A stretch of DNA of 43,301 nucleotides from an uncultured Candidatus Saccharibacteria bacterium (GTDB lineage Bacteria; Patescibacteriota; Minisyncoccia; Phycocordibacterales; WO2-35-19): NCBI GenBank assembly GCA_964601125.1, contig CAZRKB010000001.1, positions 6,371 to 49,671 of the forward strand. The letters are read 5' to 3'. Positions within the stretch are counted from its first letter, which is position 1; every line of letters begins with the position of its first letter. The notes below the pieces were generated by a model, which worked only from the letters and a program-made list of their open reading frames with translations, was not told where the DNA came from and made no database searches. Shown here one piece after another: positions 3,157 to 41,928 of the stretch. A program made the position numbers and the translations under genes.

Positions 3157-3387
3157 TTACTTCGTATTTTTCTTAACATTCGAAACGTGTATAGGTGTAG
3201 CCTGCTCTATCACCTTACCTTTCTCGCCTTGCTTTCTAGGCTTTTTGTGAAGCTTCTTTTTATTTACACCATCAACCAACACCAGAGAAAGTTTGGGAAA
3301 TGCCTTAACAACAGCACCACTCTTGCCTTTGTCTTTACCGGTTATCACCGTCACTTTATCTCCTTTTTTTATTTTCATCTTAATCAT
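3157..3387 (-). CDS. rplX: 50S ribosomal protein L24 (short form)
   Basis: KOW motif IKKGDKVTVITGKDKGKSG; lies between rplN and rplE; the start could instead be the ATG at 3378. Confidence 0.9.
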   Translation of the reverse strand: MIKMKIKKGDKVTVITGKDKGKSGAVVKAFPKLSLVLVDGVNKKKLHKKPRKQGEKGKVIEQATPIHVSNVKKNTK

Positions 3388-13073: not shown

Positions 13074-13985
13074 ATGAATAAATTCGACAAGCGTACTCCA
13101 GACAACCAATATCAAACCCTATTGCGCAACATACTAGAAAATGGAATACGCACACCCAGTCAACAAGGAGTGGACGCTTTGACTCTGATCGCTCCTCAGC
13201 CAATGAGATTCAAGATTGAAAACGGTTTTCCAATGATTACAGAGCGTAACATGAATCCAAAAATATCTGATCACTTGCCGGTTACAGTTTGGCAACAGGC
13301 CATAGGAGAAATATGTGCGTTTATAAACGGTGCACGTACAGTAGAAAAGTTAGAAGAGTTTGGATGTTTTTGGTGGAAGTCTTGGGCAACACCAGAAAAA
13401 TGCGCCAAACGTGGGCTTGAAACTGGAGACTTGGGGCCAGGTTCTTATGGAGCTGCTTTTCATGACTTCCCCACATCAGAAGGAAAACCTTTCAATCAAT
13501 TTAAACATATAGTTGAGCAGATAATCGAAGAGCCTCAACTCCGTACACACTTTGTAAGCCCTTGGGTACCTCAATACATAGGCAGAGGTAAAGGAAAACA
13601 ACAAAAAGTAGTAGTTGCACCCTGTCATGGATGGTTAAATATAAGAATTATAGAAGGAAAGATGACTTTACATATGATGCAAAGATCAGGAGATGTACCC
13701 GTAGGAGTACCTTCAAACATGGTTCAGTATGCCGCTTTGGGCATGATGCTTGCCCATGTCACAAACACTGTTTTTGACGAATTTGTTCATACAATATCAG
13801 ACGCGCATATTTACGTAGACCAAATACCAGCAGTAGAAACTATGCTTTCTCGGGAACCTCGACGCTTCCCTACTATAACAATAAATAAAAATAAAAAAGA
13901 CTTGTTTGATTTTAGAAAAGAAGATTTTGAACTTTCTGATTATGACCCACACCCAGGAATTAAAGGTATACCTGTTGCAATATAA
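13074..13985 (+). CDS. thyA: thymidylate synthase (ThyA family, divergent)
   Basis: Catalytic VVAPCHG, QRSGDVPVGVPSN and C-terminal YDPHPGIKGIPVAI; start moved to M35 because TTGAAA-17-TATCAT lies 6 nt upstream. Confidence 0.85.
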   Translation: MNKFDKRTPDNQYQTLLRNILENGIRTPSQQGVDALTLIAPQPMRFKIENGFPMITERNMNPKISDHLPVTVWQQAIGEICAFINGARTVEKLEEFGCFWWKSWATPEKCAKRGLETGDLGPGSYGAAFHDFPTSEGKPFNQFKHIVEQIIEEPQLRTHFVSPWVPQYIGRGKGKQQKVVVAPCHGWLNIRIIEGKMTLHMMQRSGDVPVGVPSNMVQYAALGMMLAHVTNTVFDEFVHTISDAHIYVDQIPAVETMLSREPRRFPTITINKNKKDLFDFRKEDFELSDYDPHPGIKGIPVAI

Positions 13986-13986
13986 A

Positions 13987-14023
13987 CCTCACCCCTAACC
14001 CCTCTCCTAGATTCAGGAGAGGG
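13987..14023 (-). repeat. family 1 element, copy A
   Basis: Minus strand CCCTCTCC-TGAATCTA-GGAGAGGG-GTTAGGGGTGAGG; begins 2 nt after the thyA stop. Confidence 0.85.
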
Positions 14024-14036
14024 AAAGAAAAAAGAC

Positions 14037-14522
14037 ATGGAAGACAAAGATAATAAATATATAAATATGCGGGCCATCCGCAGAGAAGACCAGCGCCAGG
14101 TAATGGAAGAAATAAAAAAACAAGGTCACTGCCCTTTTTGTCCTGAAAATTTAGATAAATACCATAAAAATCCAATTTTAAAAGAAGGAAAGTTTTGGAT
14201 ACTTACAGAAAACCAGTGGCCTTATGAAAAAATAAAACACCAACTTCTCGCAATATACAAAACTCACATTGAGCATATAAAAGATATTGAACCCGAAGCA
14301 GGAGAAGAACTTTTTCTAATGTTTAAAGAAGAAGCAAATAAAAGAAATATTCCCGGTGGCGGCGTGGCTATAAGATTTGGTAAAAGTGAACACGGTAATT
14401 ACGGGAGCAGTGTACTTCATATCCACGCACACCTTGTTGAGCCTGACCTAGAAAAACTCGAAGAAACAGAGGCTTGGAAATTCAAATTTGGCGAACCAAA
14501 AAATTATAAAAAGAAATCTTGA
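14037..14522 (+). CDS. HIT-family nucleotide hydrolase/transferase (CPFC + HxHxH)
   Basis: 161 aa; CPFC motif and histidine triad VLHIHAHLV. Confidence 0.75.
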   Translation: MEDKDNKYINMRAIRREDQRQVMEEIKKQGHCPFCPENLDKYHKNPILKEGKFWILTENQWPYEKIKHQLLAIYKTHIEHIKDIEPEAGEELFLMFKEEANKRNIPGGGVAIRFGKSEHGNYGSSVLHIHAHLVEPDLEKLEETEAWKFKFGEPKNYKKKS

Positions 14523-16129: not shown

Positions 16130-16729
16130 TTAACTCTTCATTTCATCTAATACATCCTGGATGGTTTTTAAAATTTTTGGAGTTAACGCTTGTCCAAGTT
16201 TTTTAGCGGCCCCAATCTGGAGTCTTCTCAGTTTCGCGCTGGTCGAAGTGGTAGCCATCGGCTCAAGTACAACAACTTTATCGCAATACTTCTTTAATTC
16301 TTTTAATTGTTTTTTGTCGTATGTTTCTTTTGTTGCAATTAAGGTGTCTGGGCAAATAGATTTTATTAAATTCCATTTTGGATCTTTAAGTTCTTTCAGA
16401 AACACCAAATCTACATATCTAAGGTGGGTCAACATTTCAACCCTTTCGTCCTGAGGGACTACAGGACGCTCTGGCCCTTTTCTATGTTTTATTTTTTCAT
16501 CACTATCTATTCCAACAATTAAAAGATCCCCATGTTTTTTTGCCTCTCTTAAATACCTACCATGACCAACATGTATCATATCAAACGATCCCTGAGTTAG
16601 AACTATTTTCATACCCAAATACTTACAATGTTCGACAAGACTTTTTATTTTTTTGTAGTCAGTTAAAGCCTTTCCCCCAAACCCGAGGTGAGCATAAGCG
16701 CCCTTATCTACAGTAATACCGTTTTCCAT
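16130..16729 (-). CDS. cytidylyl/adenylyltransferase-family protein (TagD/RfaE-II-like)
   Basis: Nucleotidyltransferase motif GSFDMIHVGHGRYL; 199 aa. Confidence 0.7.
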   Translation of the reverse strand: MENGITVDKGAYAHLGFGGKALTDYKKIKSLVEHCKYLGMKIVLTQGSFDMIHVGHGRYLREAKKHGDLLIVGIDSDEKIKHRKGPERPVVPQDERVEMLTHLRYVDLVFLKELKDPKWNLIKSICPDTLIATKETYDKKQLKELKKYCDKVVVLEPMATTSTSAKLRRLQIGAAKKLGQALTPKILKTIQDVLDEMKS

Positions 16730-16735
16730 GTAGGT

Positions 16736-16764
16736 ATGTTATGTGTATTTTCCTTCTTTGGCAA
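16736..16764 (-). promoter_or_regulatory. promoter TTGCCA-17-TAACAT, 6 nt from the cytidylyltransferase ATG
   Basis: Read on the minus strand. Confidence 0.5.
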
Positions 16765-16784
16765 GTTTGTATAAAATGGTAATT

Positions 16785-17273
16785 ATGGCAAAACCAAAAA
16801 TAAGTGTGATAGCCGCTATAAGCAAAGAAAAAAGAGCCTTGGGTCTCAATGGCAAACTACTGTGGAAAATTGAGGGAGATTTGCCCCGTTTTAAGGCTCT
16901 GACGACGGACCACCCAATCATAATGGGACGAAAAACTTATGAATCAATTGGGAGACCCTTGCCAAACCGCACCAACATAATAATAACCCGCAATCTTGAA
17001 TTTAGATCAGAAGGAATCATCTTGGTACCCTCAATAGAAGAAGCGATTCGCGTAGCAAAAGAAAAGAATGACAGAGAAATTTTCTTAATTGGCGGAGGTG
17101 AGATATATAAACAGGCTTTACCTTTTACTGATCGCCTATATTTAACAGTGGTAGACGATGAGCCAGAAGCTGATACCTTTTTCCCTGATTATTCCGAATT
17201 TAAAAAAATAATAGAAAAAGAGGATCACTTAGAAAGTAACCCCCCTTTCTCTTTTGTAACTTTAGAAAAATAA
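16785..17273 (+). CDS. folA: dihydrofolate reductase
   Basis: ISVIAAIS, IMGRKTYESIG and LIGGGEIY motifs; start moved to MAKPK. Confidence 0.88.
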   Translation: MAKPKISVIAAISKEKRALGLNGKLLWKIEGDLPRFKALTTDHPIIMGRKTYESIGRPLPNRTNIIITRNLEFRSEGIILVPSIEEAIRVAKEKNDREIFLIGGGEIYKQALPFTDRLYLTVVDDEPEADTFFPDYSEFKKIIEKEDHLESNPPFSFVTLEK

Positions 17274-17282
17274 TTAACCTTT

Positions 17283-17293
17283 CACTTCCACCC
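17283..17293. repeat. direct repeat CACTTCCACCC (left copy)
   Basis: Exact 11-mer also at 17373-17383; on the minus strand it reads GGGTGGAAGTG, like the L11 C-terminal codons. Confidence 0.8.
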
Positions 17294-17372
17294 ACGCATA
17301 ATTTCTTGCTAGAAACTTGCGCGGGCCCGCCTCGCACCGTCGTGCTCCGGCCGGCGGAAGTGCGGTTCAACG
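17294..17372 (-). other. 79-nt GC-rich structured insert at the 3' end of rplK
   Basis: G+C-rich block (GCGGGCCCGCCTCGCACCGTCGTGCTCCGGCCGGCGGAAGTGCGG) plus AT hairpin TTTCT-TGCT-AGAAA, bracketed by an 11-nt direct repeat. Confidence 0.6.
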
Positions 17373-17786
17373 CACTTCCACCCCCATGCTCCTGCACTGA
17401 CCGGCGATGATTTTGACGGCTGCTTCGAGGTCGTTTGCGTTAAGATCAACCATCTTCTTTTCTGCGATTTCTTCAAGTTGCTTTCTTGTAATGGTACCCA
17501 CTTTTTGACTGGGAGCCTTGCCAGAACCTTTTTCGATACCCAAAGCTTTCATGATGAGACTTGATGCCGGAGGAGTTTTGAGAACAAAATCAAAAGTGCG
17601 ATCTTCATACACGCTTATATCAGCAGGCACCAACCCATCCATTTCCCTTGTGGCGTCATTAAACTGCTTGACGAATTCACCAATATTAATACCAGCCGGA
17701 CCCAAAGCCGTACCAACAGGAGGCGCAGGGGTTGCCTTGCCGGCCGCGATCACTAATTTTATTTTTTTTGATACTTTTTTTGCCAT
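17367..17786 (-). CDS. rplK: 50S ribosomal protein L11
   Basis: 139 aa; [22 protein letters not shown] motif; follows nusG. Confidence 0.95.
17373..17383. repeat. direct repeat CACTTCCACCC (right copy, inside the rplK C-terminal codons)
   Basis: Exact 11-mer match to 17283-17293. Confidence 0.8.
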
Positions 17787-17894
17787 ACGCCGAATATATT
17801 ACATTATAAATTTACATTTGCAACCTTAACCTTTTTGCACCGCCCAAGGTTACAGAAGTAGGCGGCATCAAAAGATTTATAGTCGCTTTGCTTC

Positions 17895-18440
17895 TTAAAT
17901 CTTTTTGACTTGCAAGAAGTCGAGTTCAACCGGAGTTTCTCTGCCAAACATCGGCACTAACACTTTTACTTTGCCCCTATTTTCATCAACTTCTCCAACC
18001 TTACCCTCCAAATCCTTAAATGGGCCATCAGCGATTTTTACAGCATCGCCCTCAGAAAGATCTATGTTGTGTTTAACCTTTTCTGAGCTCATCCTCTTAA
18101 ATAGCTCGTCTACCTCTTTTTGATCAAGTGGCACTGGGAAAACCCCTGAACCGACAAACCCTGTAACACGAGGGGTGTTCCTGACCACATACCAAGAATC
18201 ATCAGTAACTACCATGTCAACGAGAATGTAACCAGGGTATATTTTTTCTTCCTCCTCTATTCTTTTGTTGCCCTTTATTTTTATCTTCTTTTCAGTTGGT
18301 ACAAGCACGTTGAATATCCTGTCTTCCATTCCAAGAGACTCGATTCGCTGTTTTAAGTTGCGCATAACCGTATTTTCATAGCCAGAATAGGTATGTATGG
18401 CATACCAGTTCCTGCCTTTTTGTATTTGTTGTTTAGACAT
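17895..18440 (-). CDS. nusG: transcription termination/antitermination factor NusG
   Basis: NGN N-terminus WYAIHTYSGYEN and KOW GDAVKIADGPFKDLEGKV; start set to MSKQQ so it does not overlap secE. Confidence 0.93.
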   Translation of the reverse strand: MSKQQIQKGRNWYAIHTYSGYENTVMRNLKQRIESLGMEDRIFNVLVPTEKKIKIKGNKRIEEEEKIYPGYILVDMVVTDDSWYVVRNTPRVTGFVGSGVFPVPLDQKEVDELFKRMSSEKVKHNIDLSEGDAVKIADGPFKDLEGKVGEVDENRGKVKVLVPMFGRETPVELDFLQVKKI

Positions 18441-39288: not shown

Positions 39289-40519
39289 TTATAAACCTAT
39301 GTTTGACTTAAAAGTTATAAATTCGGTCCTTGATCAACTAAAAGAAGAGAGAGGTATACCAAAAGAAAAGGTGCTTGAAGCCATAGAAATGGCCATAGCA
39401 ACAGCTTATAGGAAAGAATACGGCAAGCGCGGACAGATAATCCGAGCCAAATTCGACATACAAACCGGTGCCATAGAAATGAGCCAGGTCAAAATCGTAG
39501 TAGACGAAACAAAAGTCTTTATGGACAGAGAATCCTTAGAGGAAGCCTTGGCTGAAGCAGAAGAAAAAGACGACGAAAGAGTTTTGTTCAATCCCGAGCA
39601 TCATATCCTAGTAGAAGACGCAAAAAGGATTAAAAAAGGTGCGGTAGTCGGAGATGAGATCATTTTTCCCATCGAATCAAAGGGTGATTACGGAAGAATA
39701 GCCAGCCAGACTGCCAAACAGGTCATAATGCAAAAAATCCGTGAGGCAGAAAGAGAATCAGTACTCAAAGAGTTTGGTGAGAGAGAAGGAGATATAATAA
39801 CCGGCTCTGTGCAGAGGATCGAGCGCGGAAACATATTTATAGATGTAGGCAGAGCGGTAGGCATCATGCCTTATGAAGAACAAATCCCAGGCGAGCGATT
39901 TAGCCAAGGAGAGAGAGTACGCGCTTATCTTTACCGAGTAGAAGACGGACCAAAAGGCGTGGTTTTGAGACTTTCTCGTTCTCACCCCAAGTTCCTTATC
40001 GAGCTTTTCAAAAATGAAGTGCCGGAGCTTGTCAACAATTCGATAGAAATAAAGAGTGTAGCTCGAGAACCAGGGTCAAGATCAAAAGTAGCCGTTGTTT
40101 CAAATGACAACTACATTGATCCGGTCGGATCATTGGTTGGGCAAAGAGGTGTAAGAGTAGCCACCGTAACAAGTGAGCTAGGAGGAGAAAAGATAGACAT
40201 TATAGAGTGGTCAGATAACGCAGCAGAATTTATCGAAGACGCCCTCTCTCCTGCCAAAATAGTGTCAGTTGACATTGATGAAGAAAACAGAGAGGCAAAA
40301 GTGGTGGTTTCAGAAGATCAGCAATCTCTCGCTATCGGCAAAGGTGGCCAAAACGTACGCCTCGCTGCTAAATTAACTGGTTGGAGGATAGACATTAATT
40401 CCATAAAGGGTGAGGAGCTCGGCGGAGCAGAAGGAGTCGACTCCGCTCAAGGCTCCGTCGAGCCGAAGGAGGAAAAGAAGGAAGAAAAGGTAGAAGAATC
40501 AAAAGAGGAAAATTCATAA
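39284..40519 (+). CDS. nusA: transcription termination/antitermination factor NusA
   Basis: S1 and two KH regions (GQRGVRV, GKGGQNVRLA); acidic/lysine-rich tail; the start could be 39284 or 39299. Confidence 0.93.
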   Translation: MSYKPMFDLKVINSVLDQLKEERGIPKEKVLEAIEMAIATAYRKEYGKRGQIIRAKFDIQTGAIEMSQVKIVVDETKVFMDRESLEEALAEAEEKDDERVLFNPEHHILVEDAKRIKKGAVVGDEIIFPIESKGDYGRIASQTAKQVIMQKIREAERESVLKEFGEREGDIITGSVQRIERGNIFIDVGRAVGIMPYEEQIPGERFSQGERVRAYLYRVEDGPKGVVLRLSRSHPKFLIELFKNEVPELVNNSIEIKSVAREPGSRSKVAVVSNDNYIDPVGSLVGQRGVRVATVTSELGGEKIDIIEWSDNAAEFIEDALSPAKIVSVDIDEENREAKVVVSEDQQSLAIGKGGQNVRLAAKLTGWRIDINSIKGEELGGAEGVDSAQGSVEPKEEKKEEKVEESKEENS

Positions 40520-40555
40520 CCCCCTCCCAACCTCTCCCTTACCTTAAGGGAGAGG
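40520..40555 (-). repeat. family 1 element, copy F
   Basis: Minus strand CCTCTCCCTT-AAGGT-AAGGGAGAGG-TTGGGAGGGGG; starts 1 nt after the nusA stop. Confidence 0.8.
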
Positions 40556-41761: not shown

Positions 41762-41848
41762 GCCTCTCTTAATAATAACCTGTCTCGACGACCCGCTTCG
41801 CCAGAGCTCCAGCGAGGCGAGCAAGGCGGAGAGGGGTTAGGGGTGATT
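41762..41848 (+). repeat. family 1 element, copy H, composite with a nested GC-rich segment
   Basis: Right arm plus tail GGAGAGGGGTTAGGGGTGA at 41828-41846; candidate left arm CCTCTC at 41763; ~60 nt between them holds the hairpin GCTTCGCC...GGCGAGC. Confidence 0.6.
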
Positions 41849-41928
41849 ATCCCCTTTAAAAAAGATTTAAACCGTACTACAATGGTAATTATTACCAATA
41901 CGGTTTATTTATTATTTAAATATAAAAA

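Follow-up and report, generated by a model that had tools for sequence, protein, structure and literature searches.

Introduction

How did a structured, GC-rich block come to stand within the last codons of a ribosomal protein gene, and what is its part there? The question is raised by rplK, which encodes ribosomal protein L11, in a 43,301-nucleotide (nt) stretch of DNA from an uncultured Candidatus Saccharibacteria bacterium (GenBank assembly GCA_964601125.1), hereafter the window. The 11-mer CACTTCCACCC occurs there at 17283-17293 and again at 17373-17383, 90 nt from start to start, and the two occurrences bracket a 79-nt block that is the GC-richest stretch of the window, reaching a GC content of 0.75 (in windows of 60 nt) against an overall mean of 0.40. 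On the mRNA strand the second copy of the repeat is followed by AAA GGT TAA, and deletion of the block together with one copy yields a gene that ends in SMGVEVKG-stop instead of the present SMGVEVR-stop. An initial annotation, made from the sequence alone, had read this arrangement as a small element that had inserted itself and replaced the final codons of L11, leaving behind an 11-bp target-site duplication. The repeat and its coordinates are as described there, the reconstructed VEVKG-stop end is live in a relative whose rplK is about 98% identical, and empty sites in close and distant relatives bear out the insertion; the target-site duplication did not withstand comparison across loci. 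Here we show that the block belongs to a family of non-coding inserts of about 75-90 nt that are found at the identical position of rplK in at least 42 distinct loci, from independent assemblies across the Patescibacteria. The explanation that we hold with somewhat more confidence than doubt is that of a mobile insert, site-specific and structured as RNA, which brings along a replacement for the gene tail.

Filled sites, empty sites and scars

The family was collected from the contigs of L11 homologues and from scans of public collections for the conserved core of the insert. The element-bearing metagenome-assembled genomes (MAGs) include some that are labelled Zambryskibacteria, Kaiserbacteria, Paceibacteria and Saccharibacteria, and at rplK loci the insert always has the same orientation as the gene. 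The C-termini of the best 120 L11 homologues fall into two groups, one VEVKG-like in proteins of 140 amino acids (aa) and the other ending in VEVK or VEVR in proteins of 139 aa. The ancestral tail of the 140-aa proteins is present in about half of the close homologues, and each one that was fetched belongs to an empty site.

The body of the window's own rplK, at 98-100% identity, was recovered from other sequencing runs in three states: with the element, with an empty site and with a remnant. The empty site, in a strain with an rplK about 98% identical to that of the window, reads ...GTGGAAGTG AAAGGATAA TCCAATGC... and encodes VEVKG-stop, the junction of GTGGAAGTG and AAAGGATAA being the one predicted from the window; more distant empty sites are present in the loci L005, L202 and L203. 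The remnant-only state reads AAATAGGTAACCTCATCC..., as in L001, whose rplK is 99.5% identical. The block is an insertion relative to the empty sites of close relatives, and it has been gained and lost between near-identical strains.

Further loci hold parts or multiples of the element. L205 keeps only its first 6 nt, L017 and the inner copy of L156 retain only the last 15-21 nt, and nested or tandem copies are found in L083, L156 and L159. L140 and L155 carry identical elements next to different old L11 tails and unrelated downstream DNA. The distance between cores does not correlate with that between the host rplK genes (rho 0.05), identical 60-nt cores being found in hosts whose rplK differs by 22-41%, and because the core has few variable sites this missing correlation is suggestive only.

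Three hairpins on the rplK sense strand

The mRNA strand of the window's copy folds into three hairpins, H1 to H3 (Table 1), at -60.5 kcal/mol (z = -5.4 against shuffled sequences). H1 is made from the gene end itself: a third, inverted copy of the L11 tail lies at 17353-17364 and pairs with 17371-17382, termed copy 1, which overlaps the upstream 11-mer at 17373-17383; the result is a 12-bp hairpin that holds the TGA stop codon of rplK within its 6-nt loop. The initial annotation had noted an absence of terminal inverted repeats, which is correct in so far as the two ends of the element are not inverted repeats of each other, but it had overlooked this inverted copy (the arm); the pair formed by gene tail and arm is the only inverted repeat of the element.

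The same anatomy recurs throughout the family, with a live tail GTN GAN GTN, 0-2 codons and a stop, followed by the inverted tail, CCGGAG-stem-CGAGG (H2), GGGCCCGCGCAA-stem-loop-UAUGYGUGG (H3) and a second tail that reads V-E/D-V-K(-G)-stop, termed copy 2. The live stop codon lies within the loop of H1, 0-2 codons past the repeat, in 42/42 loci. Perfect pairing of the arm is seen with copy 1 at 38 of 41 loci, but with copy 2 at only 21. The block thus exists in many other copies, and all of them have the same fold.

Covariation was assessed in a 36-sequence alignment with 500 shuffles and slid controls. Standard pairs fill 98% of the cells across the three hairpins and double-sided changes occur at 16 pairs; none of the 500 shuffles reaches the observed values, the slid controls collapse, and RNAalifold independently gives the same three-hairpin fold. 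H1 varies in two columns, which correspond to the third bases of the Val and Glu/Asp codons, and their partners in the arm covary in 34/36 sequences. H2 shows compensatory changes at all four inner pairs and at one outer pair, and its GGA/GA internal loop, which possibly forms tandem sheared G.A pairs with a bulged G, is invariant except for compensated variants. The lower stem of H3 does not vary; it includes a G.U pair in 35/36 sequences and a second pair that alternates between G-C and G.U, and the invariant core amounts to 12 nt with the conserved G.U pair. All three hairpins are maintained by compensatory evolution on the rplK sense strand, and the conserved G.U pairs point to a function on that strand, be it as RNA or as the DNA strand itself.

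The arm also matches its own copy 2 more closely than other copies, with 89.9% pairing versus 83.4% for shuffled copies, a value as high being reached in none of 500 shuffles. An alternative helix between arm and copy 2 was considered and rejected, as it is far weaker than H1 and leaves 9-14 of 36 cells unpaired at variable positions.

In L002 (4470-4500) H3 has a recombinant appearance: its 3' half is that of the window, its 5' half is nearer to that of L003, and one pair is broken, which suggests crossovers within the element between genomes.

Table 1. Features of the rplK 3' region in the window (positions count from the first letter of the window)
Feature	Position	Strand	Description and basis
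rplK (ribosomal protein L11)	17367-17786	-	139-aa open reading frame (ORF) ending in SMGVEVR; TGA stop 17367-17369 supplied by the insert
Copy 1, 5' arm of H1, GGUGGAAGUGCG	17371-17382	-	last live L11 codons G-V-E-V-R; inverted repeat and fold
Loop of H1, UUGAAC	17365-17370	-	contains the live UGA stop; sequence and fold
Arm, inverted copy of the L11 tail, 3' arm of H1, CGCACUUCCGCC	17353-17364	-	inverted repeat, fold and covariation
H2	17329-17351	-	outer stem GCC/GGC, GGA/GA internal loop, variable 4-bp stem, GACG loop
H3	17291-17325	-	invariant lower stem CCCGCGCA/UGCGUGGG, conserved G.U, bulged A, covarying upper stem, AGCA loop
Copy 2, GGGUGGAAGUG	17283-17293	-	downstream 11-mer; old L11 tail V-E-V; first three G also close H3
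Old rplK end, AAA GGU UAA	17274-17282	-	K-G-stop, now untranslated; live gene end at the empty sites of relatives
folA (dihydrofolate reductase)	16743-17273	+	ORF list; Pfam DHFR_1 at this place in syntenic relatives
Terminator-like hairpin and T-run	17215-17249	-	inside the 3' end of folA; consensus match only

Two L11 tails in place of a simple target-site duplication

Taken by itself, the window invites the reading of a classical miniature transposable element, with an 11-bp target duplication of which the downstream copy is a neutral footprint: its two copies are identical at 11/11 positions, and empty sites exist. A codon-by-codon comparison of copy 1 and copy 2 at 41 loci (123 sites per codon position) tells strongly against it. 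No more than 6 of the 41 loci have identical copies, the repeated stretch varies in length between loci from 9 to about 20 nt, and the differences number 7, 4 and 57 of 123 at codon positions 1, 2 and 3, respectively, all seven at position 1 being Val-to-Ile changes in the live copy. Copy 2 is changed at positions 1 and 2 in 4 of 246 sites, with third positions near saturation, and it reads as an intact tail with its stop (V-E/D-V-K-stop) in 37/42 loci. In a neutral footprint, positions 1 and 2 would change at about half the third-position rate, an expectation that is exceeded more than tenfold; third positions that differ about ten times more often than positions 1 and 2 are impossible for the decay of such a footprint, and the differences are therefore not the product of neutral decay after a duplication. 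With the additional lack of terminal inverted repeats, and of dispersed copies in the 444 kb searched, we consider a classical miniature element very improbable. The repeat was also less telling than had been supposed, since the initial annotation had taken an 11-mer match at this distance to be rare by chance; the window contains nine exact 11-mer pairs within 100 nt where Markov simulations predict about 1.4. The significance derives from the relatives and not from the repeat.

What is observed agrees with two gene tails that have separate histories, or with a downstream tail that is still subject to coding constraint. Two options remain on this reading of the codons: a young insertion whose live tail would have been brought by the element, or an old tail that would still be expressed. 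As far as the sequences can be read, the old tails of the window and of L002 or L013 differ at third codon positions only, and the four genomes with folA synteny (the window, L002, L009 and L013) carry two types of H1 loop. The in-frame 90-nt spacing of the window is a coincidence, as copy 2 lies in frame 0, +1 and +2 at 11, 21 and 10 loci of the family, respectively. Because copy 2 occupies all three frames, readthrough of the live stop codon is excluded as a route to its expression.

Copies beyond rplK

A covariance model of the core (R1) has its sole match in the window at 17291-17352 on the reverse strand, with 84.6 bits, and finds one copy per rplK locus across the 444 kb searched; with one match per locus, the element is not a dispersed high-copy repeat in that DNA. 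Copies also occur outside rplK. In L063 the core lies between 5S rRNA-like copies, antisense to the 5S genes; in L178 it follows directly after a tRNA in the same tail-arm-tail layout; in L158 it occurs three times around tRNA-like sequences; and in L139, L166, L168, L195 and L199 it is located within other structured repeats on contigs of higher GC content.

Two of these loci merit description. On the reverse strand of L195, in a span that begins about 420 nt before the core (3198-3272) and runs to 330 nt past it, stand two tandem structured repeats (GGGATTCGAAAG...GACCGAATCCC, split-T-arm-like), one with a longer version of the element (beginning GTGAGAACC...) and its sister without, so that this higher-GC contig holds an internal pair of filled and empty sites. 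In L158 (1270-1990) an insert of about 85 nt, with CGAA repeats on both flanks, breaks the T-loop of a tRNA-like gene (anticodon arm CTG); the 5' part of this tRNA (bases 1-26) and its 3' part are each present in a further, separate copy. ARAGORN makes no tRNA call for this gene; should the cell depend on this tRNA, the insert would have to come out of the RNA.

Searches of Rfam 15 gave no fitting family, neither with a 126-nt query at E values up to 10 nor with related loci at gathering thresholds, all matches being at chance level, and a literature search found no description of the element; the family is apparently undescribed. The pattern used for the first collection scan, CGAGGYGGGCCCGCGCAA, was too GC-rich, and chance matches from high-GC genomes dominate the matches listed. 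The scan of IMG/VR gave one match, on a contig of 20,159 bases that is identical in size to the high-GC chance match L154.

The insert as a probable part of the rplK transcript

The only terminator-like site on the rplK strand within 16700-18000 is the hairpin with T-run listed in Table 1. This consensus match probably marks the end of the rplK transcript and would place the insert in the 3' untranslated region (UTR) of rplK. As it is the only such site on the same strand and lies downstream of the element (17249-17215 in the direction of transcription), the element itself is probably transcribed. The suggestion that the block could act as a terminator found no support: the folded RNA has three hairpins, none of H1, H2 and H3 is followed by a T-run, and the insert thus lacks the mark of an intrinsic terminator.

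A rival explanation that we regard as possible though unlikely is that the insert is a host-useful cis-acting RNA, a functional domain of the rplK 3'-UTR that is selected and spread by ordinary recombination. It could serve, for example, as a stabiliser against 3' exonucleases, as a processing or protein-binding site or as the source of a 3'-UTR-derived small RNA. The constant orientation with rplK, upstream of the sole terminator-like site, would suit such a role, as would the strong covariation with its invariant 12-nt core and conserved G.U pair, the single copy per locus, an element-bearing rplK junction on contig X23 from an RNA-seq library, and the proximity of the other copies to strongly transcribed tRNA and 5S rRNA genes. 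However, about half of the close homologues have the ancestral tail, and since all fetched ancestral tails represent empty sites the module is dispensable. The insert also sits inside the coding end instead of past the stop, its scars and nested copies speak of repeated insertion and decay, and in L063 it is antisense to the 5S rRNA genes.

According to a further alternative, removal or skipping of the insert in the RNA keeps the old VEVKG-stop tail expressed. This could take the form of a tiny intron, whose inverted copy acts like an internal guide sequence that pairs with the end of the upstream exon, or of ribosome hopping from copy 1 to copy 2; excision of 90 nt from the RNA would join ...AUGGGG to GUGGAAGUGAAAGG. 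Excision as an intron would explain why the downstream L11 tail evolves like coding sequence, with its four changes in 246 sites at positions 1 and 2 and its stop kept. The stop in a hairpin loop at the would-be take-off site, the covariation of the guide-like arm with the upstream tail, and the diverged insert of L158, missed by the covariance model, that interrupts the T-loop of a tRNA-like gene all point the same way. We nonetheless judge removal or skipping improbable. Many loci yield the same protein (VEVK-stop) with or without it, so that nothing would be gained; the last Val codon is the same in both copies in 22/42 loci and all three codons are the same in 6/42, and this mismatch of take-off and landing codons, together with the frequent identity of the two products, makes hopping unlikely. 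As for splicing, an element of 62-90 nt is much smaller than every known self-splicing core, Rfam 15 offers no intron or ribozyme family match, and the assembled contigs of the RNA runs contain no spliced joints and one unspliced junction. The copy of L011 is absent from the RNA runs searched.

The rplK locus and the absence of rplA

The homologues of the window's rplK product carry the Pfam domains Ribosomal_L11_N and Ribosomal_L11, the top matches being L11 proteins of Parcubacteria/Patescibacteria, and nusG and secE lie upstream of the gene. Downstream, folA converges on rplK as the initial annotation had stated, and its stop abuts the old rplK stop. The two stop codons stand tail to tail (TAA|TTA, window 17271-17276), which implies that the convergent genes had no spacer at all prior to the insertion; the only terminator-like hairpin of rplK likewise sits within the coding end of folA. 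There is no tRNA or tmRNA at the insertion site.

The other end of rplK is variable as well. The spacer between nusG and rplK, which forms the rplK leader (window 17787-17894), cannot be aligned with that of L001 (352-456), although nusG is 97.7% and rplK 99.5% identical between the two, and both ends of rplK accordingly appear as hot spots of replacement. In some close relatives, L003 (1880-2278), L004 (1999-2397) and L202 (1089-1487), a 132-aa PDDEXK_3 (PF13366) gene without counterpart in the window stands between nusG and rplK, making this interval a second variable slot of the locus. Other small GC-rich hairpin repeats (of the CCCTTCTCC...GGAGAAGGG and CCCCTCCCAACCTCTCCC types) populate spacers at 13940-14080, 40515-40540 and 41775-41854 of the window and at 885-925 of L001, where one of them stands behind rplK in place of the element core; they constitute a family distinct from the rplK element.

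The initial annotation had further remarked that rplA, the gene of ribosomal protein L1, is absent. The window indeed has no L1 gene, and none of its ten ORFs of a length comparable to L1 (191-281 aa) has a Ribosomal_L1 match. The absence is unrelated to the insert: a missing rplA characterises the OD1-L1 group of Parcubacteria as a whole (PMC5220378), and relatives with empty sites likewise lack rplA after rplK. That the insert might be a relic of an L1-binding autoregulatory RNA, left over after the loss of rplA, was nevertheless considered, because its position matches that of the L1-interacting RNA between rplK and rplA in Actinobacteria, Cyanobacteria and Chloroflexi (PMC3616713), and because the H2 motif GGA[G...C]GA recalls the core GGGA[G...C]G of the site in E. 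coli. We find this scarcely credible. The outer helix and the loop topology are unlike those of the E. coli site, the element is an insertion relative to empty sites, its copies also occur at tRNA and 5S rRNA genes, L1 is absent from the clade, and the L1 stalk of the 23S rRNA looks shortened, by sequence reading, in the element-bearing L063. Mimicry of an L1-binding site was discarded on the first, second and fourth of these grounds. L063 (1-2473), from a Spechtbacterales MAG, comprises a 23S rRNA gene with an apparent large insertion typical of the Candidate Phyla Radiation; the seemingly shortened stalk would be consistent with loss of L1.

How the element may move

In the explanation that we favour, a mobile insert that brings its own gene tail, the moving unit would consist of a tail copy, the loop with the stop, the inverted copy, H2 and H3. 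It would land immediately upstream of the resident tail, and the incoming tail would become the C-terminus of L11 (here VEVR-stop for VEVKG-stop). Because the carried tail takes over in this manner, the target gene would never be broken and L11 would stay functional; no cost of the element to L11 was detected in the window. The inverted copy may open, base-pair with the resident tail and thereby guide the choice of site, and the invariant H2/H3 core would probably be a handle for a mobilising enzyme, or belong to an RNA intermediate. Turnover would be fast, the element being gained, deleted again (between the two tails or around them) and re-inserted.

Several observations weigh against this explanation. 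No mobilising gene was found in the sequence searched, that is the window and the loci of its relatives, and all sequence searched has a single copy per locus. The strong sequence conservation and the conserved G.U pair fit a host-useful RNA equally well, and the intactness of copy 2 can also be explained by its expression after removal of the insert from the RNA. In L083 it is the gene-proximal copy that has decayed, and this agrees with no simple order of insertion. Constraint and homoplasy at the few variable positions of the core could partly explain its lack of correlation with the host gene. Finally, the 3' region of rplK shows no mosaic signal of imported DNA, so any donor tract would have to be very short; import of this region by way of long recombination tracts was rejected on the same ground.

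A bolder proposition, which we deem unlikely on the whole, is that the family represents a new class of tiny elements, without a protein of their own, which would home to conserved gene ends (rplK, tRNA and 5S rRNA genes) by means of an internal guide and a carried sense copy, or else the smallest known bacterial intron. If indeed undescribed, the family adds a strongly conserved structured nucleic acid to a large and poorly understood bacterial radiation. It would illustrate a low-cost mode of insertion, in which an essential ribosomal protein gene is interrupted and supplied with its own last codons and stop, and the pairing between arm and tail may exemplify site choice by base pairing and hence a possible principle of programmable targeting. 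There are practical consequences too: the annotated C-terminus of L11 (VEVR/VEVK or VEVKG) depends on the presence of the element, which is in turn a sensitive strain-level marker of gain and loss in Patescibacteria populations.

Comparison with known systems

Close parallels in size and composition are the REP/BIME/REPIN sequences, small GC-rich, hairpin-forming and non-coding repeats at the 3' ends of genes that are transcribed into 3' UTRs, are mobilised by RAYT transposases, have no terminal inverted repeats in the transposon sense and occur in tens to hundreds of dispersed copies. The rplK element shares with them its small size, GC-rich and hairpin-forming character, non-coding nature, position at a gene 3' end, probable transcription into a 3' UTR and lack of terminal inverted repeats. 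It differs in being site-specific and, in the sequence searched, single-copy, with three hairpins around an invariant core, an overlap with the stop codon and two flanking gene tails, and no RAYT gene was seen in the window or the loci of relatives. The Rickettsia palindromic elements, or intragenic REPs, are small palindromic mobile elements that insert into conserved protein genes, which survive the insertion, and are translated in frame as extra loops. Here the likeness lies in a small palindromic insert that leaves a conserved protein gene in working order; in contrast, the rplK element ends translation by its own stop and replaces the C-terminus.

The mitochondrial byp elements of Magnusiomyces are bypass inserts of the kind known from gene 60 of phage T4. 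The T4 gene 60 bypass cassette lies on the mobile element MobA (10.1101/2022.08.31.505936). Like these systems, the rplK element is a short structured insert of a conserved gene, holds a stop codon inside its 5' hairpin, is bordered by similar sequence on either side, has inserted repeatedly and independently at one position, and has left hit-and-run traces. The rplK element departs from them in that its take-off and landing codons match in only 22/42 loci, that bypass would often leave the protein unchanged, that no homing endonuclease gene is attached, and that it is found at the extreme 3' end of its gene.

In group I introns (internal guide sequence) and group II introns (pairing of exon-binding and intron-binding sites, EBS-IBS), the end of the upstream exon is base-paired to a stretch of the intron close to its 5' end, much as the arm near the 5' end of the rplK insert pairs and covaries with the last upstream nucleotides. 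H3 resembles group II domain V in shape only, with a CGC and G.U pair, a bulge in the 3' strand and about 35 nt; lacking any model match, it was not accepted as a domain V. The element is five to ten times too small for a catalytic core of either group, and it lacks domain VI, a GNRA loop and any Rfam match.

Genomic islands and prophages that integrate at the 3' ends of tRNA genes provide a precedent for the exchange of gene ends: the incoming DNA brings a new functional end of the gene, the old end stays downstream, and the direct repeat between the two is not necessarily identical. The rplK element rebuilds the end of its target gene in the same way, and does so in about 80 nt, without integrase or cargo; it carries, in addition, the gene end in inverted form, which folds with the live one into a hairpin.

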